Assembly (NCBI GenBank): GCA_038840695.1
Contig: JAWBVE010000004.1
Span: 774 to 64,773, forward strand
Origin: Candidatus Pacearchaeota archaeon
Lineage (GTDB): Archaea; Nanobdellota; Nanobdellia; Pacearchaeales; JAPDKA01
Direction: 5' to 3'
Length of the DNA stretch: 64,000 nt
The translations under genes and the position numbers were made by a program. The notes below the pieces were generated by a model. It had not been told where the DNA came from. It made no database searches and was given only the letters and a program-made list of their open reading frames with translations. Shown here piece after piece: positions 21-32,274 of the stretch. The stretch's first letter is position 1; each line of letters starts with the position of its first letter.

Positions 21-860
21 ATGAGAAAGAGGCAAAAAATTTTTCAATGCGCGAGCAGGCAAGGCACGCAAAATACATGCTATGCACGGGGTGCGATAAC
101 GCTCTATGTTATTATCGCAATTCTCATTGTCGTTGTTGGGCTTTTTACTTTCAGCATTGTTGCCAGGAGCAGAACAAAGAAAGCTGTTGAGCCAGAGTGG
201 TTTAGAGATTATGTGAAGGGCTGCGTTAAGCAATGGCTAGACCGAGCTATTTTAACAGTAAATCTCTTTGCTTGTGGCACATTGCCTAGTGGCAAGCCAG
301 CCTGCTATGGCCAAATACCTTACTTTTGCTATAATGATGTGCCAGGCCAAAATTGCATCCCACAAGATCCGCTCGATTATTCAAGCATAATTAACATTGT
401 TAAGGGCAATGTATCACTGTGCATTAATAATGCTACAGCTGAAGCACAAAAAAAGGGCTTTGAAACTACGCCACAATCTTTCACTCCATCAAACATTGAT
501 GTCAATTTTAGCTCGACATTTGAGCTAATAAAGCTCGACATAACAGCGCCGATAACATTAAAAAGAGGCGATCTAACAATAAGTATGTCAAGATTTGATG
601 TCGAGACAGAAAACAAGGGGCAGATAGTTTGGGGCAATCTAGAAATGTTTAGAGATGTGGTAAATTCAATAGTACAGCTTGAAAGCATTGGAGACTATAC
701 CCTTAATGAATTAGCTGAAAACCAGGAAATTTTTAAAGATGTAATAATCAGCATTGAAGATGGCAATCCATTTTATCCTTTTGGTGGAGGAACAAGAGTT
801 TATGCTTTAGAAAAACAAGGCCAAAAGTTTAAATTTGCGATAAGAGAGATAAAATATTAG
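21..860 (+). CDS. hypothetical membrane-anchored extracellular protein with a pilin-like leader
   Basis: ATG at 21. Basic N-terminus (MRKRQK..ARG) followed by one hydrophobic segment (AITLYVIIAILIVVVGLF), then a soluble domain. No recognisable catalytic motif. Confidence 0.45.
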   Translation: MRKRQKIFQCASRQGTQNTCYARGAITLYVIIAILIVVVGLFTFSIVARSRTKKAVEPEWFRDYVKGCVKQWLDRAILTVNLFACGTLPSGKPACYGQIPYFCYNDVPGQNCIPQDPLDYSSIINIVKGNVSLCINNATAEAQKKGFETTPQSFTPSNIDVNFSSTFELIKLDITAPITLKRGDLTISMSRFDVETENKGQIVWGNLEMFRDVVNSIVQLESIGDYTLNELAENQEIFKDVIISIEDGNPFYPFGGGTRVYALEKQGQKFKFAIREIKY

Positions 861-882: not shown

Positions 883-3800
883 ATGAAAAAAAAGAGTGCC
901 TGCGTAATTTTGATGACAATTTTATTGCTAGTGCTAATCCCTTTGAGTGCAGCAATTGTCTATCATCCAGGCCTGGTAAGAGATGCTTTTCCTACAGAGC
1001 AGAGCGGGTGCATAAATGAATTGAACAACTGCGGACGAGACATTAATTGTGTCAAAGACAAAAACAAAATATGTGAAAATAATCCTTATGTTACAATTGT
1101 GTGTAAGGAAGGAAATGTTTCAATTGGCGGCTCTATTGACACTTGCACAATCAATGAAAGCCAAATAATTTTTTCAGGAAATTATCTCTTGGTCTATAAC
1201 TTTACCAATTTTATGATTGAGAAAGGGCCTTTAAAATATAAAGATATTGAGCTTAGAGTTGTTTCATTGTCTACTCTTTTTGCTGATGAAGGGAGCGCTA
1301 AAGGCGGTAACACAACAAAAGGTAAGTTCAATCAATCGGGTGGGCGAGGTGGAAAAGGAGCAACATTGACAAGCTTTGCCTATGCAGGCACGAAGGGCAA
1401 TGACAGTGATAAAAAAGGTGGAGAAGGAGGCTATGGCGGAGGAAGCATAATTATTTATGCCAAAAATTTTACTAATTATGGAAGGCTTAATGCTAATGGC
1501 GTAGTAGGAGAGGCTGGGAGTGGATGCGAGGGTTGCCAAGGGAGTGGTGGAGGCGGCGGCGGAGGTGGAGGCTTGGTTGTAATAAATGCTGATTATTTTG
1601 ATAATCAGGGAACAATTTCTGCTGAGGGAGGAGTTGGCGGGCTAGGTGGAGAAGAGTATGGTGGAGGAGGTGGAGGCGGAGACGGAGGAACAATTCATCT
1701 TAATGTAAAAGAAATAAAAAATGAAGGAAATCTTTTTGTTGATGGAGGGCCTGGCGGATGCTCTGCGTGGAATCTTACTGAAGAAGGGGAAAAAGAAAAT
1801 ATTTTTTGTGGTGCTCAAGGTGGGTATGAGAATTGGCTAATCAAAACCTTTTGGTTTGCACGTAAAGAGGAAGAAATTAAAAAGGATGGAGAGAAAGGAA
1901 AGTGCTTAGCAGAAGAAGGAAAATGGAGAGGATGGGCGGTTTTGGATTCATGCGCGAGAATTGAATTTAATATATGTGACCCAACGCGTAATGTGCCTGA
2001 GGGGGAACCAAAATGTGAAAAAACGAAGGGTAATATGAATCATTCAATAGCCCTTAGAACTTATGAATGCGTGTCACACAAGATGTGGCATAAAGGTTAT
2101 AATTGCTTGGGCGCTGCAGCACCTGAAAGTGGAGATTTTGATGCCCCAACCATAGGCGAAGAAGAGCCGGGCCAAAATGGCGCAGATGGAACTATAATAG
2201 AAGCAAATTGCATTTATAAAGCATATAATGGATCGATCTTACTAAAAAACAATGGTGATTTTTGGTGTGATTATTTTAGTAATTATAATATAGAAGAGGG
2301 GGGTGATAAGGTGGGTACATTGCACATGTTGTTTTGGTGCAATGATGGGAAAATTGCTGCGTCGCAGCTTTCAAATAGAGCCCATATTTGCAAGGATGGC
2401 GAATTTGAGCTAAACCTTTTTTCTCAATGTTTTCAACTCAGCTCTGAGAATTGTGCAAACAATTGGCAATGTAGGAAAATTAATGACAAGTGTGTTCCAA
2501 AATATCCTTCAGCAGAAGCTGATTGCTCATATGGAAATAGCATTATAAAGGGAAATGGAGAATGTACTCTTAATTCTAGCACATATTTTCAACCTTACAA
2601 AGAGTGCGTCAGAGCGAGCTTAGGAAACAATGATTTAAATCCCTCTAAGGCCATTTGTAGCTCGGTCGGTGATTGTGGCAACAATAGCCACTTCTCAGAA
2701 GAGGTTTCCCTTGGTGAGGGCTACGATATTATTCCTCTCGACAATTCAAGCGCATTATTTAAATGCGAGAAGGTTGAGTTAAAGCCTCAGACTGAAGATA
2801 CATGCTCAACATGCAATGAAGAACCGCTATCTGAATATGGAAGATGTACTGATTATGTTTGCAGCAGTCTTGGAAGCGATTGTAAATATAATAGTGAAAC
2901 AAAACAATGTGAAAAGACTTATTCAGGAATAGAGCCTTATTTAACAGATATTGGTGTAAGCGCTGAAGGCTATGAATGCAAAATAGAAAAAGAAGTTGTA
3001 GAAGGAAAGGTGCTCCCTTCAATCACTTTGAGTTGTGCAACTGCTGGAGAATGCATTTTACCTTATTCAAAACTTAAGTTAACTTATAGCACAAATAATG
3101 ACACAATTTGTAAGATAGCAATTTATCCTAAAGGCCAATCTCTCAGTGCTTCCTGGGAAAACATGAGTAATGCAGATAATAATGCAAATTTCTTTACTAC
3201 GCAACATGTTTGGGACATTCCTGCATATTTTTTCCCAAAGCTTGATCAAGATGTGAGTGCTCATGCCTATCTTGTATGTAAAAATAGGTATGGCAAAAGT
3301 AAAACTTATGAAATAAACTTTTGTGTTTCAGGCACAGATAATATCCCGCCAGCAATCGAGACTTCTTATGTGGATAGAGAAGAAGTTGCACCAGGACCAC
3401 AAAGTATGAAAATTTATGTGAATGAGCCAGTAGAAAATTGCACAGTGACCTTATCATCAGGAGGACAACTATTACTTAATAAAAATAACTTTAGTTATTC
3501 GAGGGAAGGCAAAATTGTGGCGGAATTTTCATTTGATATGCCTACACAAGATTTAAGCATTCAAATACAATGTGAAGATGAGAGTGGAAATGTTGGAGGG
3601 AAAAGCCTAACTTTAATACCGGCCGTAAGAGGGATTTCTCTTGCTATCGAAAGCCCGCAAGATAATTCAATTTTTACTACTTGCTATGATGAAGTTGAAA
3701 TAAATTATGCACTGTCAGTAGACACTGCATGCAATTTAGTTGGTTGTTCTTTAAAGGCGTGTAACACTACTAGTTGCAAAACTTTTTCACTTGGCCAGGA

Positions 3801-4158
3801 ATTACAGGGGAAAATTAAATTGGGTAATGGAAGTTATGTGCTTAATTTCTCTTGTTCAGATAGCTGCAACTTTGAAGCAAGCCAAAATGTAAGTATAAGT
3901 GTTAATGTTGACAAAGAGGGGCCGCACGTAAAAAGACTATACAAGGAAGGAGGCAATCTTGTAATTATTACAGATAAAAAGGCAAGTTGTTATGAATTGG
4001 CAAGATGTAGAGATGTTACGCAGAATGAATTAATATTTATCAGCCCATTTTCTCAAAATGCAATAAATCATCTCTTACCTTGGCGATTAGCTCCTTATTA
4101 TGCGTGGTGTCAGGATGAATGTGGTGATGGAGAATGCAATATAATAAATCCACTTTAA
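883..4158 (+). CDS. large secreted Cys-rich surface protein with Gly-rich beta-helix-like repeat region
   Basis: N-terminal signal/TM (ILMTILLLVLIPLSAAIV). Gly-rich repeats at roughly nt 1280-1700 (GGEGGYGGGSIIIYAKNF..., GSGGGGGGGGGLVVINADYF..., GGGGGGGDGGTIHLNV). The protein contains more than 60 Cys in total. Stop TAA at 4156-4158. Confidence 0.6.
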   Translation: MKKKSACVILMTILLLVLIPLSAAIVYHPGLVRDAFPTEQSGCINELNNCGRDINCVKDKNKICENNPYVTIVCKEGNVSIGGSIDTCTINESQIIFSGNYLLVYNFTNFMIEKGPLKYKDIELRVVSLSTLFADEGSAKGGNTTKGKFNQSGGRGGKGATLTSFAYAGTKGNDSDKKGGEGGYGGGSIIIYAKNFTNYGRLNANGVVGEAGSGCEGCQGSGGGGGGGGGLVVINADYFDNQGTISAEGGVGGLGGEEYGGGGGGGDGGTIHLNVKEIKNEGNLFVDGGPGGCSAWNLTEEGEKENIFCGAQGGYENWLIKTFWFARKEEEIKKDGEKGKCLAEEGKWRGWAVLDSCARIEFNICDPTRNVPEGEPKCEKTKGNMNHSIALRTYECVSHKMWHKGYNCLGAAAPESGDFDAPTIGEEEPGQNGADGTIIEANCIYKAYNGSILLKNNGDFWCDYFSNYNIEEGGDKVGTLHMLFWCNDGKIAASQLSNRAHICKDGEFELNLFSQCFQLSSENCANNWQCRKINDKCVPKYPSAEADCSYGNSIIKGNGECTLNSSTYFQPYKECVRASLGNNDLNPSKAICSSVGDCGNNSHFSEEVSLGEGYDIIPLDNSSALFKCEKVELKPQTEDTCSTCNEEPLSEYGRCTDYVCSSLGSDCKYNSETKQCEKTYSGIEPYLTDIGVSAEGYECKIEKEVVEGKVLPSITLSCATAGECILPYSKLKLTYSTNNDTICKIAIYPKGQSLSASWENMSNADNNANFFTTQHVWDIPAYFFPKLDQDVSAHAYLVCKNRYGKSKTYEINFCVSGTDNIPPAIETSYVDREEVAPGPQSMKIYVNEPVENCTVTLSSGGQLLLNKNNFSYSREGKIVAEFSFDMPTQDLSIQIQCEDESGNVGGKSLTLIPAVRGISLAIESPQDNSIFTTCYDEVEINYALSVDTACNLVGCSLKACNTTSCKTFSLGQELQGKIKLGNGSYVLNFSCSDSCNFEASQNVSISVNVDKEGPHVKRLYKEGGNLVIITDKKASCYELARCRDVTQNELIFISPFSQNAINHLLPWRLAPYYAWCQDECGDGECNIINPL

Positions 4159-4166
4159 AAAGAGGC

Positions 4167-6440
4167 ATGAAAGGAAAGATGGGAAGAAAGTTAATTGCTT
4201 TGTTTATTTTGCTTAGTTTACTTAGCATGAGCTTTTGCCTTGCTCTTTCATCCTCAGATGAACTTACAAAAGTTAAGAGAGGATATAATTGGTTAAATGC
4301 TAATGCAATAAAGCCAGGCTCAAACGAAATTGAGCTTAGCATCTCAACCTTTGCTCTGAAAGAGAGGCTTTCCACTAATCAAATCAAGCTCATAAACAAA
4401 ACCTTGCTTGAAAAAAGTTATGGCAATGGCACATGCTGGCCAGGGCCGCAAGAAAATAGCTGTGATGTGCTAGTGACTGCCATAGTAAAATTTGGGCTTG
4501 ATAGCATTGGCTTAGACACAAGCAAAGCAACCGAATGGCTTAGAAGGCATTTTATTCCTATTATGATTAGCGACATAAAATGGTATTTGCAGCTTACATC
4601 GCCAAACGCTTTTACATGTTATCTTAGAATCAATGATAGCGCAGTCATTCAGAATGTTAGCTTTAACGAAGCTGGAAGCATCGTGGCTTCTTCTCTTACT
4701 GAATGTTTTTCAGAAGCCGCGGCAAAGTATTGGCTAGAAATAAATCAATCATGTCTTAATAAAAGCTTTGAGATAATTTGTGATAAAGATGTTAAAGCAA
4801 ATTTTATTTTTGCAAGTAGTGCAAGCGGTGCATGGTTTGTACCTGGTGAAACTTTTGAGCTTAGTGCTAATGTAGCTAGCAAGTTGAGTATTCCTGTTCA
4901 ATATTGTCTTGCTCCTACCAATACTTGTAATTATGAAGCAAGCGCTTGGATGGCCTTTGCACTTCAACAAGTTAACTCATCTCTTGCAAGAAGCTTTTTG
5001 CTTTATCTTCTTTCAAAAGCTAGCGAAAATCAAAAGTATCTGCCTTATGCCTTTCTTTATGCTTTAATGAATAGCAGTGAATATTCGAGCAATGTTGTTG
5101 CATTAAGAAAGCCAAGTGGCTTGATCGAAGCGCCGAGTAGTGCTTATAACGAATACTATGACACAGGGCTTGCTGGAATGACAGGAGCCTTAGAAGGAGT
5201 AAATTTGTCAGTAACTAAGGCAACGCTTTTAAGTAATCAAAGTGCTCAGGGCTTTTGGCTTGCAAGCAGGAACAATGATACAATAAGGGATACAGCGCTG
5301 ATCCTGGCTGGAATATGGCCTGGCTTTACAGGCTATTCTGCCTGTGAGCTTGCAGGTTATAGTTGTGTAGCCAATTGCAGTGCTACTGGCGGCATCTTGC
5401 AGGCATTTTCATGCTTTGTTGGGGAATGTTGTAATATAAATGGCATTGAGGGAGCATGCGAGATTAGAGGAGGAAATTGCACAACAAATACAACATGCTC
5501 TGCTAATGAAACACAAGTGCCTTATGCATGCAGCTCTGGAAAATGTTGTAAGCCATTAAGTCAATCACTCTGTGTAGCTGAGATAAATGGTAGTGTTTGT
5601 CTACCAAGCCAGAAATGTGTTGCAGCAGGCTCTGTAGTTCCTTTCATAAGCTCGAGTGATAGCAATTATTGCTGTAAGGGCAATTGTACTACGCCGACTC
5701 CAACAAAAAGCTGTGCAGAGCTTGGCGGCGAGATTTGTGATTCTAATGCAGGCAAATCATGCTCTCAAGGAAAGTGGCTTCTTAATGCAAATGATACAAG
5801 CTTTTGCTGTCAGCAAGGCTATTGCTCGGCTGCTCTACTTCCTTGTGCTCAGCAAAATGGCATTATTTGTAAGCCTGATGAGGAGTGCGTTGGTGGTTAT
5901 CCTGTCATAGCATCTGATACAGGCAATAAGCCGAGCTGCTGTACTCAAGGCGGGAGATGTGTAGCAACAACATGCCAATATAGCTCTTGTGCTGAAGACG
6001 AAGGCTGTAGTGGAAAGAGCTATGAAACAAGTGATGCGCTAAAATGCTGTGAGGGAGAATGTTTAAAAAGCTGCTCAGCTCTTGGAGGCCAGACTTGTAA
6101 TGCTAATCAAAAATGCAAAGGCGAGCTTGTGAGTGCTTCAGATGTGACAAGTTGTTGCATTGGCCAATGCAAAGAAAAAGCTGGCTTTCCTTTTGGCATT
6201 TTAATTTTTATTTTACTAGTTCTTGGTCTTGGCGTAGCAGGCTTTATCTTATTCAAGAAAGGAAAGCTAAGTAAGGAAAAAATTAAAGCAGCCTTTAGTG
6301 GGCTTGGAAAAATAATAAAAATAAAGAAAAAGCCAAGGCCAGGAACAGGAGCACAGGCAGGCATGCCAGCAGCAATGCCTCCAACAATGCCGGCAATTCC
6401 CCGAGGAATGCCAAGGCCAGCAGGGCCAGGCACAAAGTAA
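4167..6440 (+). CDS. secreted surface protein: N-terminal alpha/alpha-toroid (prenyltransferase/terpene-cyclase-like QxxxGxW) domain + tandem Cys-rich modules + C-terminal TM anchor with Pro-rich tail
   Basis: The track ORF starts at 4134 and overlaps the upstream gene; the ATG at 4167 follows the upstream stop. Signal peptide LIALFILLSLLSMSFCLA. Motifs GTCWPG, SASGAWFVPG and NQSAQGFWLA match QW-type repeats. About ten ~35-aa modules with spacing C..LGG..C...C.G....SCC.G.C lie at nt ~5340-6180. A C-terminal TM (FPFGILIFILLVLGLGVAGFILF) is followed by a PAMPPTMPAIPRGMPRP tail. Confidence 0.6.
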   Translation: MKGKMGRKLIALFILLSLLSMSFCLALSSSDELTKVKRGYNWLNANAIKPGSNEIELSISTFALKERLSTNQIKLINKTLLEKSYGNGTCWPGPQENSCDVLVTAIVKFGLDSIGLDTSKATEWLRRHFIPIMISDIKWYLQLTSPNAFTCYLRINDSAVIQNVSFNEAGSIVASSLTECFSEAAAKYWLEINQSCLNKSFEIICDKDVKANFIFASSASGAWFVPGETFELSANVASKLSIPVQYCLAPTNTCNYEASAWMAFALQQVNSSLARSFLLYLLSKASENQKYLPYAFLYALMNSSEYSSNVVALRKPSGLIEAPSSAYNEYYDTGLAGMTGALEGVNLSVTKATLLSNQSAQGFWLASRNNDTIRDTALILAGIWPGFTGYSACELAGYSCVANCSATGGILQAFSCFVGECCNINGIEGACEIRGGNCTTNTTCSANETQVPYACSSGKCCKPLSQSLCVAEINGSVCLPSQKCVAAGSVVPFISSSDSNYCCKGNCTTPTPTKSCAELGGEICDSNAGKSCSQGKWLLNANDTSFCCQQGYCSAALLPCAQQNGIICKPDEECVGGYPVIASDTGNKPSCCTQGGRCVATTCQYSSCAEDEGCSGKSYETSDALKCCEGECLKSCSALGGQTCNANQKCKGELVSASDVTSCCIGQCKEKAGFPFGILIFILLVLGLGVAGFILFKKGKLSKEKIKAAFSGLGKIIKIKKKPRPGTGAQAGMPAAMPPTMPAIPRGMPRPAGPGTK

Positions 6441-6459: not shown

Positions 6460-7050
6460 ATGAAAAATAAGAGCAAGGCCAGGCACAAGAAACACAAGCT
6501 CGAGAAAAACTTACTAGCTGGGCGAGAAGAATGGCTAGTCCGAGGCAGGCGAGGCTTTGAGCTAAGCTTTACTTTTATTTTTTCTCTTATCTTGATTGCT
6601 GTCTTTATTTATGTTGCAATATGGGCGATAAAGCATTTTCTCGAGCTCAAAGATAGAACACTCATTCAGGCATCAATTGATGACATAAAATCCGAAATCC
6701 AAGAAACTTGGCAGGCAGAGGGCAAGCAAGAAACACTAGAATTTTTATTTCCAAAATCTGTAACTTATATTTGCTTCGCAAATTTAACTTCATTAACTTG
6801 TTTAGGAAAAGCTTATTGCTCAGACCTTAATAATTACTCTGCCTACTCCTCCTTTAAGCAATACAACACTTTTGTTCTACCATTCAAGCTTAAGGCAAAG
6901 TATGGCATTCAAGGAGCTTATTTGATTAAATGTGGAGGCATTGATTGTCTTACCTTTGCTAATCCGACGTGTATTCAAAATAAGGCAGGAAAAGTTAAGA
7001 TAAAATTTAGTGGCGTAGCAGGCGGCTTAGTCAATGTGAGTGCTGGCTGA
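6460..7050 (+). CDS. pilin-like protein (class III / type IV pilin-type leader)
   Basis: Basic N-terminus, then RRG|FELSFTFIFSLILIAVFIYVAIW. A positively charged leader, Gly, then a roughly 20-aa hydrophobic segment is the prepilin architecture. First of four adjacent similar genes. Confidence 0.5.
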   Translation: MKNKSKARHKKHKLEKNLLAGREEWLVRGRRGFELSFTFIFSLILIAVFIYVAIWAIKHFLELKDRTLIQASIDDIKSEIQETWQAEGKQETLEFLFPKSVTYICFANLTSLTCLGKAYCSDLNNYSAYSSFKQYNTFVLPFKLKAKYGIQGAYLIKCGGIDCLTFANPTCIQNKAGKVKIKFSGVAGGLVNVSAG

Positions 7051-7091
7051 CTTTAAGCGCATTTTTTTAAACTTATGTGGATTCTTTTTTT

Positions 7092-8102
7092 ATGGAGTTT
7101 GCAAAAAGAGGGGCGCAGAAAGCATGCAAGAGAAAAGCGCAAAATGCACGAAAGGCCCAAATGGCGCGAAAGGTGCAAAAGGCGCGAGCACAAAAAGCAC
7201 AGCTTTCGAGCTTTGCCTGGATTTTTAGCCTTATCATAGGCGCTGTAATTCTTTTCTTTGCCTTCTTTTTTGTAACACAATATGGCAAGCAAGTAGCAAA
7301 GCCAACAAAAGAAGTAAGTGTAGAGAGTGGCATAAATATTTTGCTCGAGCCATTCTCTGAAGTAGGCTCACTTGTTGAGGCTCAAGGCACTGCACTTGAA
7401 TTTCCTGCAGATAGCTACACTGAATTTGGTTGTAATGCGAATAATGACTATAGCGAAATAAAGTGGCGAAATAGAAAAGAAAAAACTTTTTCAATAATAA
7501 AGCAAGTTCCGGACAAATATATTTTTAGTAAGCCTCTCATTACAACACAAAAAGAAACCTTTTTTGCTTTTTCAATGCCACTCAAAGATCCTTTCTTTAT
7601 TGCAACCCCAGTAATAATTGTGGATGGCAAATATTGCTTAACAAACTTGCCTTATCAATACCGAACTAAGCTAGAAGAAATTTCTAAAGATATTATTAGC
7701 AAAACAAAATCAGCGATTAATTTTACTAATTGCCCATCAGATTACTATAAAATAGATATTGGTTGTAGTGCTTGCAATTATGGCTTTGTTGATGGCAAGC
7801 CGTGGTTTTCTGACTTGATTTATGCAGCAATATTTTCAGATTTTGATACATATAATTGCAATCTTGATAGAATTTTGGCTAGAGCAAAGATCTTAGCTTC
7901 TATTTATAAAACAAAAGCCCAACTACTTAGGAATAAAGGTTGTACCATAGGCAACATCGAAGGAGCTTTAGATAGCTTTATTACAGCCATAGATACTTTC
8001 ATGAAAAGCAAAACAGGAAACAATCTAGGTTCTTTATACAATTCAATAGTGCAACTCAGAAATATAAATGCAGGGCTTGTTGCTGATTGCAAGCTTTTTT
8101 AA
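7092..8102 (+). CDS. pilin-like protein (class III leader)
   Basis: The track start 7077 is GTG; an in-frame ATG lies at 7092. Lys/Arg/Ala/Gln-rich leader (KRKAQNARKAQMARKVQKARAQKAQ) followed by LSSFAWIFSLIIGAVILFFAFFFV. Confidence 0.5.
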   Translation: MEFAKRGAQKACKRKAQNARKAQMARKVQKARAQKAQLSSFAWIFSLIIGAVILFFAFFFVTQYGKQVAKPTKEVSVESGINILLEPFSEVGSLVEAQGTALEFPADSYTEFGCNANNDYSEIKWRNRKEKTFSIIKQVPDKYIFSKPLITTQKETFFAFSMPLKDPFFIATPVIIVDGKYCLTNLPYQYRTKLEEISKDIISKTKSAINFTNCPSDYYKIDIGCSACNYGFVDGKPWFSDLIYAAIFSDFDTYNCNLDRILARAKILASIYKTKAQLLRNKGCTIGNIEGALDSFITAIDTFMKSKTGNNLGSLYNSIVQLRNINAGLVADCKLF

Positions 8103-8103
8103 A

Positions 8104-8679
8104 ATGAAAGCCACAGCAAAAAGCAAAACAAGAGCAAGCACTAAGGCGAGGCAAGCACAAATACAATTTCAGGAGATGGCTTTTGTTTTAGTTGGCTTAA
8201 TACTTTTTTTCGGCCTTATTCTTATTTTCTTTAGCATTTACCAATCAGCAAGGATAAAAGAGCTCGCCGAAACAACGAGAAGAGAGGAAACAATATCAAA
8301 GATTCAGTCTATAGCAAATAGCCCAGAGTTTGCTTGTAGAGAGGCTTATTGTGTTGATGAGGAAAAGTTGCTTGGTTTTGCAGCCCTTGATGCTAGTAAA
8401 AAGCAAAGATATGAGAAGATGTGGGAAGGAGCAAAGATTGTGCTAATAGCTTTCGAGCGAATTTGGCCACAAAAAAAACAAGCTCTATGCAATGAAAGAA
8501 ATCCTCCTCCAGACTGCACCATCCATGTCATCTATAATAAGACAGCAGGCAAAAATTGGGAAAGCCATTCAATATTTGTGCCACTTTGCCACTACTTATC
8601 ACAAACTAGCAGCAGTGGCCTCAGTGGCTATCGATGCACAATAGGAAAAGCAGTCGTAGCTTTCGAGACAACAAAATAA
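8104..8679 (+). CDS. pilin-like protein (class III leader)
   Basis: The track start 8068 overlaps the upstream gene. The ATG at 8104 lies 1 nt after the upstream TAA (8100-8102). Leader KSKTRASTKARQAQ|IQFQEMAFVLVGLILFFGLILIFF, with Glu at +5 after the AQ site as in bacterial type IV pilins. Confidence 0.5.
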   Translation: MKATAKSKTRASTKARQAQIQFQEMAFVLVGLILFFGLILIFFSIYQSARIKELAETTRREETISKIQSIANSPEFACREAYCVDEEKLLGFAALDASKKQRYEKMWEGAKIVLIAFERIWPQKKQALCNERNPPPDCTIHVIYNKTAGKNWESHSIFVPLCHYLSQTSSSGLSGYRCTIGKAVVAFETTK

Positions 8680-8838
8680 AGCAAGGCAAAAAGCAAAAGC
8701 AAGCAAAAAAGATGGAAAACAAAAATGTGCAACAAGAAAAAATAAAACAAATGCTAAGCAAAAATAGAAAACAAAAAAAGTAAAATCAAAAAGCAAAAAT
8801 CAAAAAGTAAAAAAGCAAAAAAAGCAAAAAAGGCAAAA

Positions 8839-9396
8839 ATGGAAGAAAAAAACAAAAGAAAAGAGAAAAGAGCATGCTCTGTGAGAGCGCGAAGGGCGCA
8901 GCAAGAAGTTTTTGGCTTTGTTATTATTGTGCTACTTGTAATTGTTATAGGCATCATTATGCTAGCTTTTTCAATGCAGCGCAGCTTGAGAAAGCCTACA
9001 GCAGTGGCTGACATAAAAGTTAATAGCCTGCTTAATGCAATCATGCAATACACAAGCGAGTGCAACAACAAAAAAATCAGTGAAGTGATTGCAATGTGTG
9101 CGAATAATGAGCAGTGTGATGGTGGGGGAAACGCTTGTGATTATCTAACAAAGAATCTGACGGCTATTTTGAGTGCGAGCTTTCCTACTGTGAAGGACGG
9201 CAAAGGTTTTTTTAGTGGTTATAATCTGACTATTGGGGCTATTGGGACGCAGCCGTTTATTTCTATTACAGGCGGCGAGCAGAAGGGCAATGTTGTGGCA
9301 GGCTACTGGATAGTTCCAATACCACCAACAACAGGGCAACCAGCAACGAGCGTCGAGGCAAGACTTTATCTTTATTATCGAACAACGCAAACTTAG
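8839..9396 (+). CDS. pilin-like protein (class III leader)
   Basis: Leader RACSVRARRAQ|QEVFGFVIIVLLVIVIGIIMLAF. Preceded by a 150-nt A-rich leader (8690-8838). Confidence 0.5.
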   Translation: MEEKNKRKEKRACSVRARRAQQEVFGFVIIVLLVIVIGIIMLAFSMQRSLRKPTAVADIKVNSLLNAIMQYTSECNNKKISEVIAMCANNEQCDGGGNACDYLTKNLTAILSASFPTVKDGKGFFSGYNLTIGAIGTQPFISITGGEQKGNVVAGYWIVPIPPTTGQPATSVEARLYLYYRTTQT

Positions 9397-9452
9397 CTTT
9401 CTTAGCTTTTAACTTAGCTCTTAGCTAGCTCTTGCTTATCTAGCAAGTTTTA

Positions 9453-20517: not shown

Positions 20518-21756
20518 TCACTCAGCTTCATAATTAATTATTCTTACATTTTCTCGCGGCACACCTCTAATAACTATTGTCATATCGTCAAACTCAACTA
20601 CTATCTCCTCTTCCTCTCCCTCTTCCTCCTTGCTCTTGCTTTCCTCTTTTCTAGTTTTGATTATCCTTTTTTCGCTTTTACTTCCCCCACTTTCGCTTCT
20701 CCCACTTTTGCTTTTACTTTCATAACTTCTTTTATCGCCCTCATTTCCAACCTCATTTCCATAGCTCTTACTTTCTTCTTTCCTTTCTTCTTCTCTCGCT
20801 TTTCTAGCTGTTTCCAAATCTTTAGTAGTTTGCATGGTTTGCGTTTGTGTGATGGTTTGCGTGATCTGAGTAGATGAAATAGTTGATGTTGGATATTCAA
20901 AATTTTCAAAATCTTTTCCATAAATTAGCTTTACTTTTTCTTCAAGCGTTGCTTCTCTGCCTAATTTGCATTTTTCGGGCAAAAAGATCAATTGACCTAC
21001 TCTCAAGACATCAATGCTTCTCTCTACTTGTGGATTTAATTCATCAACTTCCGGGCCACAAATTCTTATAAGCTTTCTAAGAGAGTCGCCATACTTTGCA
21101 TTATATACTTTTGCTCTCGAGAAAGCATCATAATCAGTGGCATCATAATCAGTGCCTTTATTTTCTTTGCTTTTTTCAATTTTATAACAGGCATTTATTG
21201 TCTCAAAAACATTTTCAATATATTGCCTAACTATGGGCATTCTATTCCATCTTCCAACTTTATCTTCGCCGGCAACATAAGCAACTAAGGCATTTTCAAG
21301 GCTGCCATACTTTTCCATGCCCTCTTTTATTTCAGCAGCCCCAGCAATAACGCTAAAAGGTGAAAACCTCCAATCTTCAAAGCCATTTATTTCAAGCCCA
21401 TACTTTCTTGCGGTGAATTTCATAAGCTGCACAGGCCCGGCAGCTCCTTTGCTTGAGTAAGCATTTGGATTTCCTTTTGATTCAATAGCAATCAAGCCAG
21501 CCAATATGCAATAATCAAGTCCAAACATTTTTGCTGCTAGCTCAACAATCCCTCGATAGCTGTCAATATTTTTTAAATATCTTGCATAGTCATCATCACA
21601 GCTTTTCTTCTTGCAGTAGCTCATTACTTCACGCAAGGCAATAGGAACTAAAGAGCCATCTTGTGCTTTCGCATTGATAGGCATAAAGCTTAGTGTAAAT
21701 GGCAACGCAATTGGCAGCAAGGAAATATATTTTTTTACTTTTTCTAAAGCCCCCAT
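20518..21756 (-). CDS. secreted lytic transglycosylase (SLT/GEWL domain) with LysM domain and charged low-complexity C-terminal tail
   Basis: Signal peptide ISLLPIALPFTLSFMPINAKA. SLT catalytic block LIAIESKGNPNAYSSKGAAGPVQLMKFTA (ES..N....S..GA.G.MQ). LysM-like block YNAKYGDSLRKLIRICGPEVDELNPQVERSIDVLRVGQLIFLP. The tail is TQITQTITQTQTMQTT plus a K/E/S-rich stretch. Confidence 0.7.
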   Translation of the reverse strand: MGALEKVKKYISLLPIALPFTLSFMPINAKAQDGSLVPIALREVMSYCKKKSCDDDYARYLKNIDSYRGIVELAAKMFGLDYCILAGLIAIESKGNPNAYSSKGAAGPVQLMKFTARKYGLEINGFEDWRFSPFSVIAGAAEIKEGMEKYGSLENALVAYVAGEDKVGRWNRMPIVRQYIENVFETINACYKIEKSKENKGTDYDATDYDAFSRAKVYNAKYGDSLRKLIRICGPEVDELNPQVERSIDVLRVGQLIFLPEKCKLGREATLEEKVKLIYGKDFENFEYPTSTISSTQITQTITQTQTMQTTKDLETARKAREEERKEESKSYGNEVGNEGDKRSYESKSKSGRSESGGSKSEKRIIKTRKEESKSKEEEGEEEEIVVEFDDMTIVIRGVPRENVRIINYEAE

Positions 21757-21821
21757 TTTAGCCTCATTTTAGCTTCATTTTTAGTGTCACTATTTTACAA
21801 TTAATAATAAAATCGAAAGGT

Positions 21822-21830
21822 TTAAAAATT
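21822..21830 (+). promoter_or_regulatory. TATA-box-like element upstream of M23 peptidase gene
   Basis: TTTAAAAAT lies about 25 nt upstream of the ATG at 21850. Confidence 0.25.
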
Positions 21831-21849
21831 TTTTTTATTAATTTTTTCC

Positions 21850-22656
21850 ATGACTTTTATTAAAGCTATACTGCTTGCATCCGCTATTATAATCGGCCAA
21901 CAAGGCCAAGGCCAACAAGGGAAAACTTCATTAGAAAGTGAACTAGAAAAAATAGCTGCAATTTATTCTAGTTGTAGCTATGGCAACTATGAGAGCTGCA
22001 TTAAGGCATTTAGCATGTTACAAAAGCTGAGAAATGATGGCGATAGTTATGGAGTAAGGGCAATAAGAAAGAATAAGCGAGCTCTCGAGAAAAGCTTGAG
22101 TGAAATAATTAATAGGATTGATGAGGAAATTGCCGAGAGAGGATATGAATTTGATTCTAAGCTATTCTTCCCATTAAAAAATGTAAAATTAAGCGATATA
22201 GGCCTTGGTGGGTTTGTGGCTAGAAACTATGATTGGCTTGAAGGAAGTTTTTATAAGGGCCATCCAGCCTATGATATTTTTGTTTATGATAGGAATAGAG
22301 ATAGCTTAGATGATAGAACAAAAAAGCCAATAAAGATTTTTGCAGCGGCTGATGGCATTATTGTTTCTGTGTTTGATGAATGGGAAAAAAGTGGCAAAGG
22401 CAATGGAGGAAATTATATTTATCTTTATAACAGCAAACTGAAATATTTCTTTTACTATGCACACTTAGGCAAGATTTTTGTAAAGGAAGGTGATTTCGTG
22501 AGAGGAGGAGATGTTATTGCATATCTTGGCAGAACAGGGCGAGCAGCTGAGAGGCCTACTCATTTGCACTTTGCAATTTATTATTTTGATAAAGCCAAGA
22601 AAAATTTAGTTCCGGTTGATTGGATAAAGGAAAGATTATTTGATCTCCATTTGTAA
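21850..22656 (+). CDS. M23 family metallopeptidase (LytM/lysostaphin-like peptidoglycan endopeptidase)
   Basis: N-terminal signal (ILLASAIIIGQQGQG). HPAYDIF is the HxxxD motif. FAAADGIIVSV is present. NYIYLYNSKLKYFFYYAHL is followed by GRTGRAAERPTHLHFAI, the HxH zinc site. Divergently transcribed from the SLT gene. Confidence 0.75.
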   Translation: MTFIKAILLASAIIIGQQGQGQQGKTSLESELEKIAAIYSSCSYGNYESCIKAFSMLQKLRNDGDSYGVRAIRKNKRALEKSLSEIINRIDEEIAERGYEFDSKLFFPLKNVKLSDIGLGGFVARNYDWLEGSFYKGHPAYDIFVYDRNRDSLDDRTKKPIKIFAAADGIIVSVFDEWEKSGKGNGGNYIYLYNSKLKYFFYYAHLGKIFVKEGDFVRGGDVIAYLGRTGRAAERPTHLHFAIYYFDKAKKNLVPVDWIKERLFDLHL

Positions 22657-22685
22657 TATTGCTTATAAATTGCTAAATTGCCTAA

Positions 22686-23993
22686 TTATTCTCTCTTTTC
22701 AACTTTCACAGCTGTCGGAGCTTCGCCACCATGCCAAGTAAATCGTGGTCTAATCCTGATGCTATATATTCTTTCACTGTTATCATCAAGAACAAGAGCA
22801 GAGCCTTTGTAGCGAGGCAAGTCATTCATATAGGCAATTATATCTTCAGCAAGATAAGTTTGCATTATCTCACTAAGTGCATCTAGGTCAGGCTTTGCAG
22901 TAAGTCTATGACTTATAATTATGTCAGCCTGTGTGATTGCATCAGTATGCAATTTTCCTGGCTGTTGTGTTGCAAAAACCATGCTTATGCCAGGCTGCCT
23001 TCCTTCTCGCAGGAGCTGTATCAATGCATCACTTGCAGCCGTCTTGCCTTCTTTAGGCAAAAACTCATGCATCTCGTCAATGAAAATCCAGACAAGTGGC
23101 AGTTCTCGCTTTTTGAAAGCTAAATACTCTATCCCTCTTCGCACAGCTTCAACTTCTTCAAGCTTTCTTGCAAGCATTCGTTCATTAAAAAGTTTTTTGC
23201 ATAGAAGGCCTATTACAAGAGCCCTAACATTATAAACCCCAACACTGCTATACATGCTTAAATCAAGTACAGTAGTTGTTCCTGCCTCGAGTAGCTCGCG
23301 AGTTGTTGTTGCTTTTTCAGCCTTACTTGCAAATATGCCCCAAGCCTTGGCAGCATTAAAAAGATTTATTGCAGCAAGTTTATACCTGTCCTCTACTTCT
23401 TTATCAGCTTTTATTTCTTCTATTATGTCATCAATATCATAGTTACTTCTTGTTTTTTTTAGCTTTATTACGGCCTTTTGTATTGCTATGCCGACGGGAT
23501 GTGTAAAGCCTAAATTAAAAGTTATGAGCCAATCTTCGTGGCTAACATCAGGAACACTAAGCGCAAATGGCAATATTTTGCCAATACCTCTTTTCACAAA
23601 TTCATCATAATAGGCATAGGGCACAAAAACTCTGACAGGCAAATTTTTTGGCTTTAGATTCCACTGTCTTAACAAATCGATCTCTTTATCATTTCTATAA
23701 GCCATACTCCAATAAATTCCCATCGTATCAAAAATGAGCGGCGCAATATTTTCCTTAACTTCTGGCGGCATATCTGTTATGCCTTCAGCAATAACGCCAA
23801 GAGAATAAGACTTGCCACTTCCACGCTTACCGCAAACCATGATAACATGATTTCTTGCAATGTCAAGTAGCACTGGATTGCTCAAATTAACAAGATGCTC
23901 CATCCTAACCCAAAGCCTGCCTATAGGAATTAATCCCTTATCTCCAAATTTCTTTGTGTCTTCCTCACTTCTACCAATCCATATGTCCGGCAT
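22686..23993 (-). CDS. HerA/FtsK-class P-loop ATPase (DUF87-like)
   Basis: Walker A HVIMVCGKRGSGKSYSLG. Walker B VWIFIDEMHEFLP. Arg-finger region LLREGRQPGISMVFATQQP, matching the RxGRKxG...TQxP signature of the HerA/VirB4-like clade. Confidence 0.6.
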   Translation of the reverse strand: MPDIWIGRSEEDTKKFGDKGLIPIGRLWVRMEHLVNLSNPVLLDIARNHVIMVCGKRGSGKSYSLGVIAEGITDMPPEVKENIAPLIFDTMGIYWSMAYRNDKEIDLLRQWNLKPKNLPVRVFVPYAYYDEFVKRGIGKILPFALSVPDVSHEDWLITFNLGFTHPVGIAIQKAVIKLKKTRSNYDIDDIIEEIKADKEVEDRYKLAAINLFNAAKAWGIFASKAEKATTTRELLEAGTTTVLDLSMYSSVGVYNVRALVIGLLCKKLFNERMLARKLEEVEAVRRGIEYLAFKKRELPLVWIFIDEMHEFLPKEGKTAASDALIQLLREGRQPGISMVFATQQPGKLHTDAITQADIIISHRLTAKPDLDALSEIMQTYLAEDIIAYMNDLPRYKGSALVLDDNSERIYSIRIRPRFTWHGGEAPTAVKVEKRE

Positions 23994-25647: not shown

Positions 25648-27099
25648 ATGAAAATAATTAAAAAATATAAAAATCAAATGAGCCGAAAAAACAAACTGCT
25701 ATTGCTTTCAGCAATTATTGGGTTAATCCTAGCTGTATCAGTGATTGCAATTATCTTTTCATTTCGCCATCCAGCAGCAATAGCAGAAAAGACTAGAATA
25801 AAGGCTGAATATGCTATTTATGCTGATGGCAAGCTCTATGAGACAGAGCAAATAAGTTTTTATGAAGGCGAGCTCTCTCGGAAGCTTGGGCTTGCGAGTG
25901 ATAAACTTGATCAAGTGCTTGATCAAATGCTAGTTAATAAAAGTGACGAAGGGGATAAAGAATTTAATATAAGCTTAAGCCCTGAAGAGGCTTATGGAAG
26001 CTATGATGAAAGTTTGAGGAGAGTTGTTGATAGAACAATAAAGCAAAGCCGATTTAATGAGATAGAGCTTAGCGGCACTATCACAAAAGATCAATTTATT
26101 CAGGCTTTTGGCCAAGAGCCTCTTGTAAATCAAAGCTATGTCACAGCAGGCCTTATTTTTCCTATAAAAGTTATTTCTGTAAGCGATGTGGTTAAATTTG
26201 AGCTTGATGTTAAGCCAGGCGATGTTTCTAGAAAGGATCAATTTGGTTTTTGGCTTGAAGTTGTTGAAATCAATAGGGCCAATAACAGCGTTAAGTTAAA
26301 ATTGAGTGGAAATGCAACACAGATTCCAAGCCAATTTGGTTTAATCGATGTAAGTTTTGATAGCGAGAATGTTTATTATAAACTAAACCCTATAATTGGC
26401 GAAGAACTAATGTGGCAAAATGAAGAAGGTATAGTAGTTAGTTTCAATGAAACTTCAATTGTGCTTGATAGAAATCACCCTCTTGCAGGCAAACCAATCA
26501 TTGTAAACATAAAAATTCTAAGCAAAGAGGCTATGAAGGCAGTGGCAGGAGCAGTAATGGATGTTTTCATAATGAGTTATTGTCCTTATGGCTTGCAGAT
26601 TGTTAAAGGATTGCTGCCAGTATGGAAAGCATTTGAGGATAAAGCCAATATTACTGTTAGATTTGTTAGTTATACCATGCATGGCCAAAAAGAAGCTGAT
26701 GAAAATGCAAGGATGGCCTGTATAAGAGAGGAGCAAAGCAATAAATATATGGATTATCTTGAATGTTTTGTAGAGAGTGGAAATGCCCAGGAATGTTTAG
26801 AAAAAGTTGGCATAGATAAAGCAAAGTTAAATAGCTGCATTACAGAGCGAGCTAAAAGCTATTTAGCCTATGATGCTGAACTTAATGAAAGATATGGCGT
26901 TAAAGGAAGCCCGACTGTTGTGATAAACGGCGAGCAAGTAGAAATTTGGCCAAGAAGTCCAGCCAACATAGCAAGCAAGCTTTGCGAGTATTTCAGTGAA
27001 AAGCCACAGGAGTGCAGCATGTCTTTCAGCAAAGAAAACCCAAGCCCTGGCTTTGGTTCAAAACAGACAAGTAGCAGTGGAGGAAGCTGTGGTGGCTAA
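25648..27099 (+). CDS. membrane-anchored protein with C-terminal DsbA-like thioredoxin-fold domain
   Basis: N-terminal TM LLLLSAIIGLILAVSVIAIIF. The C-terminal block FIMSYCPYGLQIV...YGVKGSPTVVINGEQV is the DsbA cis-Pro GSPT..ING motif. The active-site position is CPYG with a single Cys. Confidence 0.5.
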   Translation: MKIIKKYKNQMSRKNKLLLLSAIIGLILAVSVIAIIFSFRHPAAIAEKTRIKAEYAIYADGKLYETEQISFYEGELSRKLGLASDKLDQVLDQMLVNKSDEGDKEFNISLSPEEAYGSYDESLRRVVDRTIKQSRFNEIELSGTITKDQFIQAFGQEPLVNQSYVTAGLIFPIKVISVSDVVKFELDVKPGDVSRKDQFGFWLEVVEINRANNSVKLKLSGNATQIPSQFGLIDVSFDSENVYYKLNPIIGEELMWQNEEGIVVSFNETSIVLDRNHPLAGKPIIVNIKILSKEAMKAVAGAVMDVFIMSYCPYGLQIVKGLLPVWKAFEDKANITVRFVSYTMHGQKEADENARMACIREEQSNKYMDYLECFVESGNAQECLEKVGIDKAKLNSCITERAKSYLAYDAELNERYGVKGSPTVVINGEQVEIWPRSPANIASKLCEYFSEKPQECSMSFSKENPSPGFGSKQTSSSGGSCGG

Positions 27100-30863: not shown

Positions 30864-31253
30864 ATGAAAGAAAAAAGAGGGCTTTCATTTTTGATGCAGG
30901 TTGTTATAGAAATTTTATTTGTTATAGCCGTCTTTGCATTTCTTGCTTTCTTTATTAGTTCTGCAAAATATCTTGACACTAAGCGAGTAGCATTAGAGGA
31001 GCTTGCTTATAGTGCAACTATTCTCGATGAAGCTGAAATTAGCTTTAATACAAGCGAGTTCAATGCAAGTGAATTAAGGCTTGAAGATAGCACTTTTTCC
31101 TTGTCTTTAGCTCCTCTTATATCTTATAAGGCCAAAATTTATGCGAGCAAAGAAATGACACTTGAAGGAAATCATTTGAAAATTGGAAAGACAAAGGCCG
31201 AGACAAAGGCCAAAGCCAAAGACCAGACAAAAGCTGTTAGAGAAGAAGCTTGA
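30864..31253 (+). CDS. pilin-like protein (class III leader)
   Basis: MKEKRG|LSFLMQVVIEILFVIAVFAFLAFFISS, a canonical KRG plus hydrophobic leader. Confidence 0.5.
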   Translation: MKEKRGLSFLMQVVIEILFVIAVFAFLAFFISSAKYLDTKRVALEELAYSATILDEAEISFNTSEFNASELRLEDSTFSLSLAPLISYKAKIYASKEMTLEGNHLKIGKTKAETKAKAKDQTKAVREEA

Positions 31254-31273
31254 AGCTCTTAAATCTTGTTAAA

Positions 31274-31690
31274 ATGAAAAAGAAATTCAGCAAAGAAAAA
31301 GAAAGAAAGGGAAAAAAAGCGCAGCTTTTAGGCTCAGAGATTTTGCTTTGGTTTTATAGGTTTTGGTTGATTGCACTTGTTGCGATTGGCACATTGATTA
31401 TAGTAGGCAAATATCAAAGTATTACTCTTGATAAAAATCCTTTTATTGCTAGTAAGCTTGTTGCAGAAGTTATAAACTGTGAAGGCGATGACAGGCTAGA
31501 TTGCCTTAGCATAGGCCCTGAAGATGACATTTATGTAAGTTATGATGGCAAGGCGAAAGGAAATGAAAATTACAGGCTTTATTGTGAGTTAATAAAGCAA
31601 GGTAGAGAAGTTACTCATTTAGATTTATATTGTAAGGAATATAAAATTTTTGATAAAACTTTATATCTTGCTGTTGCAAGAAAAAAATGA
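31274..31690 (+). CDS. pilin-like protein (class III leader)
   Basis: The track start 31250 is TTG and overlaps the upstream stop; an ATG lies at 31274. Leader KERKGKKAQ|LLGSEILLWFYRFWLIALVAIGTLIIV, with Glu at +5. Confidence 0.5.
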   Translation: MKKKFSKEKERKGKKAQLLGSEILLWFYRFWLIALVAIGTLIIVGKYQSITLDKNPFIASKLVAEVINCEGDDRLDCLSIGPEDDIYVSYDGKAKGNENYRLYCELIKQGREVTHLDLYCKEYKIFDKTLYLAVARKK

Positions 31691-32094
31691 TTGCGAAAAG
31701 AGCAAAGAAAGCAAAAAAAGCTAGGAAAGCACAAACAAGCTTTTTAGGCTTGATGCTGACAACTTTTATCCTTGTTTTCTTAATTCTTCTTTTCTTTATT
31801 GCATCTTTTTTTGTGTCTGGAAAAAAGACAACAATAAAGCTTGGCGAGAGGCTAACAGAAAAAAATTTGAATTATTTTTTGCTTCATAACATAACAGGCT
31901 CCAGTCTAGACAGCATTTATAAATGTGTGCTCAACAAAGAAAGTTGCTCTGCTGAACTTGATAAGCTCAATAGGCTTGAAATTAATTTCTTGAACATAGA
32001 AAAAATAGCCACTATAGAAGCCATGCAAGAGGAAGAGCTTCTCTTGCCCTTTACTGAGTCAAAAGTAATTTTAGTTAAGGTAAGAGAAAAGTAA
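31687..32094 (+). CDS. pilin-like protein (class III leader)
   Basis: ATGA overlap with the upstream gene. Leader KKAKKARKAQ|TSFLGLMLTTFILVFLILLFFIASFFV. Confidence 0.5.
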   Translation: MIAKRAKKAKKARKAQTSFLGLMLTTFILVFLILLFFIASFFVSGKKTTIKLGERLTEKNLNYFLLHNITGSSLDSIYKCVLNKESCSAELDKLNRLEINFLNIEKIATIEAMQEEELLLPFTESKVILVKVREK

Positions 32095-32274
32095 AAGAAA
32101 AATAAAATAAGTTGCAACAAAGCGAAAAAAAGAAAAAAGCAAACAAGAAAAAAGAAAAGAAAAAAAGAGAAATCAATGAAAAAGTGCAATAAAAAAAGGT
32201 TAAAGCAAAAAACAAAAAGATAAAACAAAAGAAAATCAAAAACAGCAAAGAGAATAAACAAAAGAAATCGCAAA

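Follow-up and report, generated by a model that had tools for sequence, protein, structure and literature searches.

Putative type IV pilin-like proteins bearing class III signal motifs are encoded by a conserved operon of Pacearchaeota and related archaea

The window analysed here is a stretch of 64,000 nt from the genome of a Candidatus Pacearchaeota archaeon (DPANN; assembly GCA_038840695.1, contig JAWBVE010000004.1). Its genes, among them those for a family B DNA polymerase, FEN1, RadA, exosome and proteasome, are archaeal in character. The window carries four consecutive genes, P1 to P4, and further upstream a fifth gene, ORF A. Together they probably encode five separate families of proteins that resemble type IV pilins and carry class III (prepilin-type) signals, which would form a set in the style of minor pilins. 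The proteins share one architecture and a conserved signal motif, and the operon is conserved within one archaeal clade and restricted to it. Cleavage of the precursors, assembly into a filament, a minor-pilin role and adhesion to a host are what we infer for them.

A preliminary description of the window had reported four consecutive plus-strand genes of common architecture at 6460-9396. Their open reading frames (ORFs) and starts are confirmed (Table 1), and each product combines a basic leader with a single N-terminal helix. The only hydrophobic segment near the N-terminus spans residues 31-63 in P1, 36-66 in P2, 18-51 in P3 and 19-51 in P4. The leaders comprise 18-36 aa in this genome and have a net charge of +6 to +12, that of P1 being 32 aa long with a net charge of +9. 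Cleavage (↓) is predicted at RRG32↓F33ELSFTFIFSLILIAV in P1, QKA36↓Q37LSSFAWIFSLIIGAV in P2, ARQA18↓Q19IQFQEMAFVLVGLILFF in P3 and ARRA20↓Q21QEVFGFVIIVLLV in P4. The ectodomains hold even numbers of cysteines (6 in P1, 8 in P2, 6 in P3 and 4 in P4) at positions conserved within the families, and each has one to three N-glycosylation sequons. P2 is the largest of the four proteins; its residues F41, W43, G50 and six cysteines are invariant or nearly so among relatives, and Q19, Q23 and F27 are invariant in the P3 family. The spacing of 1 nt to an upstream gene was also given correctly, the stop codon TAA of P2 occupying 8100-8102 and the ATG of P3 following at 8104. This architecture is not confined to the four genes, since ORF A and an operon at 30864-33063 show it too. 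In ORF A the predicted site reads ..YARG24↓A25ITLYVIIAILIV, so that the mature part would start with AITLYVIIAILIV; scans of Pfam and NCBIfam assign this protein to no family.

The signal motif was evaluated by aligning each family member on the last [KRQN][GAS] before the helix, an anchor which biases positions -2 and -1 and neither -3 nor +1 nor any position downstream. Across ~70 genomes the family consensus has K at -3, K or R at -2 and G or A (less often S) at -1, directly before the hydrophobic helix. Gln is found at +1 in 29/35 members of the ORF A family, 53/73 of P1, 63/68 of P3 and 65/68 of P4; in P2 this position is F, Q, Y or L. The resulting family logos are K-[RK]-G↓Q-V-T-I-F-I-I-I for ORF A, K-K-[AGS]↓Q-x-K-I-Q-[QE]-M-A-F for P3 and K-K-[AGS]↓Q-E-E-x-x-G-F for P4. 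The commonest shortest leaders among the orthologues measure 5-8 aa. Locus L006 for example encodes MEKRG↓FELSF (P1), ..RARA↓QLQIQEMAF (P3), MKARKKKA↓QQEVFGF (P4) and MSKRG↓AVTIYV (ORF A), and the N-termini MNKKG↓QIKISFGMIF, MKNKG↓LQVSFAWLF, ..NKKG↓QMKIQQMAF, MMKKRG↓QEEMIGF and ..GKKG↓QVAIFIII are found in L037/L042. The pattern [KR][GAS]Q precedes the first hydrophobic segment in 27/35, 54/77, 50/67 and 64/71 members (70-90%) of four of the five cluster families. As a control, it occurs in 13/307 (4%) of the other N-terminally anchored proteins from the same loci. Set against the specificity of PibD, the frequency of Ala or Ser at -1 points to a broadly specific peptidase.

In class III signals the cut falls N-terminal to the H domain (PMC6098224), and in the EppA substrates of Methanococcus a Gly closes the leader of 5-13 aa and is followed by a conserved +1 Gln (PMC3875500). 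Judged by their sequences, the N-termini of P1-P4 and ORF A are well supported as archaeal class III signals and appear closest to substrates of the EppA type. The Gly site originally proposed for P1 thereby stands, while the sites of P2, P3 and P4 had been placed after the Gln and are shifted one residue upstream by the conservation within the families. A strict FlaFind-like regular expression matches only ORF A and P2 in the window, and P1, P3 and P4 fail. Since it recovers only these two, the pattern is too narrow for this clade.

Likeness among the families is confined to the N-terminus. Profile-profile comparison with hhalign relates P1 to P4 with a probability of 91% (E=1e-6) and P3 to P4 with 78%, only over the first ~55 residues, and BLASTP among the window proteins likewise detects N-terminal similarity only. 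Pilin families typically look like this, with a common N-terminal module joined to heads that are unrelated. Against sequences of the PDB, the P1 family profile matches best a type IV pilin, at its N-terminus (8pfb_G, E=0.0038). A joint N-terminal profile of the five families yields 9 type IV pilins among 17 PDB matches with E<1, of which none is individually significant and among which other single-helix membrane proteins are mixed. PDB profile searches with P3, P4 and ORF A retrieved nothing relevant. Taken together, the motif K-[KR]-[G/A/S]↓Q, the orthologous leaders of 5-8 aa and the likeness restricted to the N-terminus give good comparative support to the earlier proposal of pilin-like proteins with class III leaders.

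The gene set is widespread in the clade. A protein search with P2 returned 59 relatives, none of them with a Pfam domain, and their source names, where present, are mostly Pacearchaeota. In an exhaustive profile search with P2, 1963 cluster representatives (clusters of 50% identity) were obtained at E≤1e-3, nearly all of them full-length with ~300-335 aa. P2 relatives occur in 82 genomes labelled Pacearchaeota, Woesearchaeota or Nanoarchaeota, with one genome per species scanned. Loci were collected from 80 of the 82 species, and in all 87 loci were searched by querying their ORFs with the window proteins. P1 was detected in 80, P2 in 83, P3 in 78, P4 in 74 and ORF A in 36 loci; relatives of G1, one of the two genes between ORF A and P1, adjoin P1 on its upstream side in 30 loci, and relatives of the other, G2, were found in only 8. 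All four genes P1-P4 are present in 58/79 independent P2 loci, and they stand in the order P1-P2-P3-P4 on one strand in 58/58 of them; most of the incomplete loci are located at contig ends. The median intergenic distances P1-P2, P2-P3 and P3-P4 amount to 11, -5.5 and -4 nt. The operon is also present in the closed genome CP061211.1 (L004). With gene set, order and strand kept across related loci, P1-P4 is a core operon specific to the clade, not membrane protein genes that came to lie in a row by chance.

The surroundings of the operon follow a wider order in many, not all, loci. Upstream this order is primase, PCNA, ORF A, a Cys-rich protein of ~570 aa, a G1-like protein of ~750 aa and then P1-P4. 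Downstream of P4 come a winged-helix regulator, an S-layer protein, two small membrane proteins and a DedA-like protein. In the sub-lineage of the window (L006, L008, L055) the usual downstream genes are replaced by a methionine aminopeptidase and a DNA polymerase. In L037 and L042 the region ~2-10 kb downstream of P4 encodes an HVO_A0114-like winged-helix-turn-helix regulator, the S-layer protein, two small N-terminally anchored proteins and the DedA-like protein. The DedA-like gene of both loci is followed by a gene for a polytopic protein of 165-170 aa, which by eye resembles an archaeosortase and is a candidate only.

This context bears on whether the genes might be a mobile or virus-derived surface module instead of a core cellular appendage. 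The neighbouring Cys-rich genes vary in copy number, with two further pairs of the Cys-rich and G1-like kind upstream, and in some genomes the operon is interrupted or flanked by inserted toxin-antitoxin-like nucleotidyltransferase/HEPN pairs, as one would expect of such a module. However, the chromosomal context near PCNA, primase, proteasome and exosome genes is conserved across the clade, and no integrase or capsid genes were seen. The composition of the window is uniform as well, with a GC content of 32-40% and no break at the P1-P4 cluster. We regard a mobile origin as extremely improbable.

Several results weigh against an assignment to the pilins. The +5 Glu of bacterial and Methanococcus pilins is not conserved in any of the five families: +5 is S in P1, S or F in P2, Q in P3, V in P4 and F in ORF A, with E at +2/+3 in P4 and Q or E at +6 in P3. 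The leaders of the window genome are unusually long. Scans of Pfam and NCBIfam gave no threshold match, neither for the window proteins nor for 35-50 orthologues per family. Below threshold, the N-terminal model DUF7248 (58 positions; cutoff 27 bits) was touched by 8/50 P1 members (at best 24 bits, E=3.5e-5), Pilin_N (PF07790) by 4/50 P4 members (E≥0.02) and by no other family, and the class III model classIII_w_PIP by 1/50 P1 members. The AlphaFold2 model of P2 (predicted local distance difference test, pLDDT, 89.6; predicted template modelling score, pTM, 0.77) consists of a helix of 47 residues (39-85), a beta-rich domain (98-240) and a helical bundle (242-327). For P4, modelled from only seven sequences (pLDDT 76.7), a helix at 2-51, three short helices and four strands within 125-180 are predicted. 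Both models thus have a long N-terminal helix leading into a head with beta structure, which speaks for pilin-like proteins, while Foldseek returned no solved pilin for either (best E 0.047 for P2 and 0.02 for P4, template modelling score <0.3). Pilin-like proteins with class III signals are already well known; the P1-P4 families are without a Pfam, NCBIfam or solved-structure match, and no description of the gene set was found in the literature.

The assembly machinery adds to these objections. No T2SSE ATPase, no platform protein of the T2SSF/TadC/FlaJ type and no A24 prepilin peptidase is encoded in the window together with 10 kb upstream and 7.3 kb downstream of it (~81 kb). The only large P-loop ATPase near the cluster is HerA/DUF87-like. 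The 7.3 kb downstream of the window encode SpoIIM, a proton-pumping pyrophosphatase, a glycosyltransferase and, by a weak Pfam match, an AglB/STT3-like oligosaccharyltransferase. A motif scan of the collected loci (L001-L093) detected in none of them a polytopic GxGD protein as expected for an A24 peptidase, and no platform gene was seen in these loci. Moreover, an obvious major pilin is missing from the P1-P4 cluster.

The motif scan of the collected loci revealed a single T2SSE ATPase, which adjoins P1 in divergent orientation (L079 7465-9294, minus strand, identical to L089 3969-5798; Pfam E=2.7e-109). An ATPase thus stands beside the cluster in only 1 of ~80 related lineages, is of a bacterial, Patescibacteria-like PilB type and lacks an adjoining PilC, which likewise speaks against a linked assembly system. 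Its relatives are mostly bacterial PilB/GspE proteins, the closest from Patescibacteria; hence it says nothing about the genome of the window, and it looks like a horizontal transfer from bacteria. Related stand-alone copies exist in the Pacearchaeote L088 and the metagenome contig L093, both amid archaeal housekeeping genes. No PilC, peptidase or pilins were found in the neighbourhoods of the ATPase genes in L088, L089 and L093 beyond the P1-P4 cluster of L089. The clade has at least some secretion ATPases. According to surveys, DPANN genomes hold type IV filament systems (bioRxiv 10.64898/2026.04.22.720090) and archaeal pilin loci often lie apart from the ATPase loci (PMC4858521). The lack of linked machinery is therefore weak evidence against pilin-like proteins.

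Ordinary bitopic signal-anchor proteins would account for part of these results. Such proteins would be anchored permanently and escape cleavage, the basic leader acting as a positive-inside topology signal. The failure of the strict pattern for P1, P3 and P4, the lack of a visible peptidase or ATPase at the searched loci, the lack of a pilin fold match and the long, repeat-expanded leaders of the window genome are all in line with this. However, topology needs no fixed K-[KR]-[GA]-Q, and this motif is kept in five otherwise unrelated families and is rare (4%) among the controls. The minimal leaders of orthologues, MEKRG↓ and MNKKG↓Q, are classic prepilin leaders, and the top-ranked PDB matches are enriched for N-termini of type IV pilins. 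As the motif is conserved in a position-specific manner, unprocessed signal anchors are hard to reconcile with the data, and we consider them very unlikely.

Processing by a class III peptidase may also serve something other than a pilus. P1-P4 might form a membrane-proximal, pseudopilus-like scaffold, comparable to the 'bindosome' of Sulfolobus with its sugar-binding proteins that carry class III signals, and this scaffold would anchor or organise the S-layer and the large Cys-rich proteins. The operon belongs, in most related genomes, to a cell-envelope island in which the winged-helix regulator, the S-layer protein (S_layer_C, E=1.6e-10), the two small membrane proteins and the DedA-like protein follow. 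No major pilin or ATPase is linked, and peptidases of the PibD type have broad substrate ranges including non-pilin proteins (PMC4858521; PMC6098224). Components of the bindosome, however, are substrate-binding proteins, and no ectodomain of P1-P4 matches such a family. The linkage to the S-layer gene is missing in the window, where a methionine aminopeptidase comes after the cluster, and four or five pilin-like proteins beside a large adhesin-like protein are the usual layout of the tip complex of true filaments. A scaffold of this kind is unlikely, and we favour pilin-like proteins of a minor-pilin-style set.

For such a set the following course of events can be proposed. Each protein would be made as a precursor whose basic leader retains the N-terminus on the cytoplasmic side. 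A PibD/EppA-like prepilin peptidase would cut after the conserved G or A and before Q (F in P1). The mature protein would keep its hydrophobic N-terminal helix and expose a disulfide-bonded, probably glycosylated ectodomain to the outside. The helices would then bundle into a complex that primes a pilus or short pseudopilus or forms its tip, with the assembly machinery encoded elsewhere in the genome, and the complex would carry or present the Cys-rich proteins as adhesins. A minor-pilin-like role appears most likely because the proteins are single-copy and dissimilar, stand in a fixed order with one member about twice as large, and lie beside Cys-rich proteins, some of which have a pilin-like N-terminus elsewhere. 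By analogy, the idea that the Cys-rich proteins are presented by a tip or priming complex has an even chance of being correct.

Sets of minor pilins or pseudopilins are known from bacteria, namely FimU-PilV-PilW-PilX with PilY1 and GspH-I-J-K. They resemble the present locus in that four unlike pilin-like proteins follow one another in a fixed order within an operon. P2 may be compared to GspK, with its size about twice that of the others and an extra helical domain, and G1 to PilY1 as a large candidate adhesin, non-pilin or fused to a pilin, beside the set. In contrast to the bacterial proteins, the heads show no detectable likeness in sequence or fold, and the signal is archaeal, with Q at +1 and without G↓F-T-L-I-E. 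The bacterial N-terminus G↓[F/M]-x-x-x-E is not shared, G↓F-E being found only in P1 and some P2 members. The resemblance to bacterial minor pilins is thus one of gene-set logic and not of demonstrable ancestry.

Among the archaeal systems, the EppA-processed pilins of Methanococcus maripaludis (Epd pilus; DUF361) share the short basic leader ending in G (here G, A or S), the +1 Gln and the retained N-terminal helix, and they also comprise several different pilin-like genes, some in operons, with some large 'minor' pilins (PMC3875500). The families described here differ from them by the lack of a Pfam or NCBIfam class III match and of the +5 Glu and by larger, Cys-rich ectodomains. Unlike the 11-gene Epd cluster, the P1-P4 locus has no linked ATPase, no two platform genes and no dedicated peptidase. 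The PibD-processed pilins of haloarchaea and Sulfolobus (Pilin_N, PF07790) are alike in K or R at -2, G, A or S at -1 and the missing +5 Glu, and their genes are often far from pilB/pilC (PMC4858521); PF07790 itself, however, is touched only by the few P4 members mentioned above, well below threshold. A further comparison is offered by the archaeal type IV filament subsystem 4A/4B with its PilY-like adhesin and by the system 1 loci reported in DPANN archaea; DPANN lineages are said there to possess type IV filament systems in which pilins occur together with an adhesin (bioRxiv 10.64898/2026.04.22.720090). Those systems are defined around ATPase and platform genes, whereas the P1-P4 locus has neither.

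The coordinates of the cluster and of related genes are summarised in Table 1. Two large Cys-rich proteins had been noted directly upstream of P1, and this is borne out by G1 and G2. The start of G2 in the deposited annotation corresponds to window position 4167. In several genomes the G1-like proteins themselves begin with a class III-like N-terminus, e.g. MNNRG↓QIALSEIMILIVG in locus L042. Two more paralogous pairs of large Cys-rich proteins (503+/918 aa and 678/786 aa) are encoded before ORF A in the 10 kb upstream of the window (L001 1-9650). These additional pairs suggest expansion and diversification of putative adhesin genes in the window genome.

Table 1. Features of the P1-P4 region and related genes in the window (aa, amino acids; TM, transmembrane segment).
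Feature	Coordinates	Strand	Description
ORF A	21..860	+	279 aa; putative fifth pilin-like family; single N-terminal TM; first gene of the conserved module
G1	883..4158	+	1091 aa with 57 Cys; large and Cys-rich, secreted or anchored
G2	4134..6440	+	768 aa, 51 Cys; N-terminal signal; C-terminal TM anchor 679-711
P1	6460..7050	+	196 aa; start agrees with deposited annotation
P2	7092..8102	+	336 aa from ATG; ORF opens at GTG 7077; start agrees with deposited annotation
Tandem repeat, 18 nt, 3.1 copies, in-frame	7132..7187	+	inside the P2 leader; encodes three RKAQxA units
P3	8104..8679	+	191 aa from ATG; ORF opens at 8068; start agrees with deposited annotation
P3-P4 spacer	8680..8838	+	A-rich, low-complexity; particular to the window genome; orthologous gaps median -4 nt
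P4	8839..9396	+	185 aa; start agrees with deposited annotation
Hairpin and T-run	9431..9447	+	35 nt after the P4 stop; consensus scan only
Second operon, four pilin-like genes	30864-31253, 31250-31690, 31687-32094, 32275-33063	+	129, 146, 135 and 262 aa

The tandem repeat makes the P2 leader of the window genome longer, and most P2 orthologues have a leader of 4-6 aa without it. The RKAQxA units are probably the reason for the label 'acid shock protein' given to P2 in the NCBI annotation. We reject this name, as it rests on the K/A/Q-rich, repeat-expanded leader that is missing in the orthologues. An A-rich low-complexity stretch (8756-8874) covers most of the 159 nt between P3 and P4 and extends into the first codons of P4; it is not found in orthologues. 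The hairpin downstream of P4 may mark the end of the transcription unit, the count of the consensus scan not exceeding that of shuffled controls.

The first three genes of the second operon overlap by 4 nt, and the fourth begins ~180 nt after the third. Their predicted sites are KRG↓LSF, KKA↓QLL, RKA↓QTS and KKG↓FAL, so that K-[KR]-[GA] and then L, Q or F stand ahead of the hydrophobic helix. The N-terminal region of P2 is resembled by Q3 of this operon (BLASTP E=8e-5), and the protein encoded at 32275-33063 matches TIGR01707 gspI with its N-terminus only (E=0.049), the sole trace of the bacterial minor-pilin and pseudopilin families. The second operon may encode further pilins of the same system, and the Cys-free protein of 129 aa encoded by its first gene is possibly a candidate for the major pilin.

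Some further genes of the window are of interest. A VKOR homologue (39114-39542, minus strand) and a membrane-anchored DsbA/thioredoxin-like protein (25648-27099, plus strand) could introduce extracytoplasmic disulfide bonds, which fits the large Cys-rich proteins and the conserved even Cys counts of P1-P4. A protein with a GGDEF (diguanylate cyclase) domain is encoded at 35575-36612 (minus strand; Pfam E=3e-37) in this archaeal genome. To our knowledge cyclic-di-GMP signalling is rare in archaea, and in bacteria it often controls pili and adhesion. The genes for an SLT lytic transglycosylase (minus strand), an M23 peptidase (plus strand) and the HerA/DUF87-type ATPase (minus strand) stand side by side at 20518-23993; murein-degrading enzymes in an archaeon hint at an interaction with bacterial cell walls. 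Another large surface protein is encoded at 51108-54677 (plus strand), a membrane-anchored subtilisin (S8) of 1189 aa that contains Ig-like and fibronectin type III repeats as well as a long stretch of Gly/Ala.

Pacearchaeota and related groups are abundant archaea that depend on hosts and have not been cultured. Pili-like appendages of ultrasmall cells and a strong host attachment of Pacearchaeota have been reported (PMC7906910). A role of P1-P4 in host attachment fits these reports of pili-like contacts and strong attachment, and an adhesive filament serving this purpose can reasonably be proposed. A bolder version, which we rate as distinctly unlikely, treats ORF A, the ~570-aa Cys-rich protein, the G1-like giant and P1-P4 as a seven-gene module for an attachment organelle specific to Pacearchaeota and Woesearchaeota. 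It would consist of a short stalk of five pilin-like proteins with previously unseen head folds, displaying rapidly diversifying Cys-rich adhesins, and would underlie the pili-like host contacts observed by cryo-electron microscopy. No canonical archaeal pair of ATPase and platform gene would be linked to it; some lineages would have acquired PilB from Patescibacteria, and the GGDEF protein of the window would possibly exert control.

The locus is a concrete, clade-wide candidate for attachment, in which five pilin-like families that lack annotation stand next to large Cys-rich surface proteins of variable kind. The P2 family alone has ~2000 cluster representatives and no database name. Even if no filament is formed, the annotation is of use, as P2 is at present labelled 'acid shock protein' by the NCBI pipeline. 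If the proteins do build a filament or a tip complex, they would enlarge the type IV filament superfamily by new head domains and would provide handles for antibodies, for assignment in cryo-electron tomography and for studies on the host range of these archaea.

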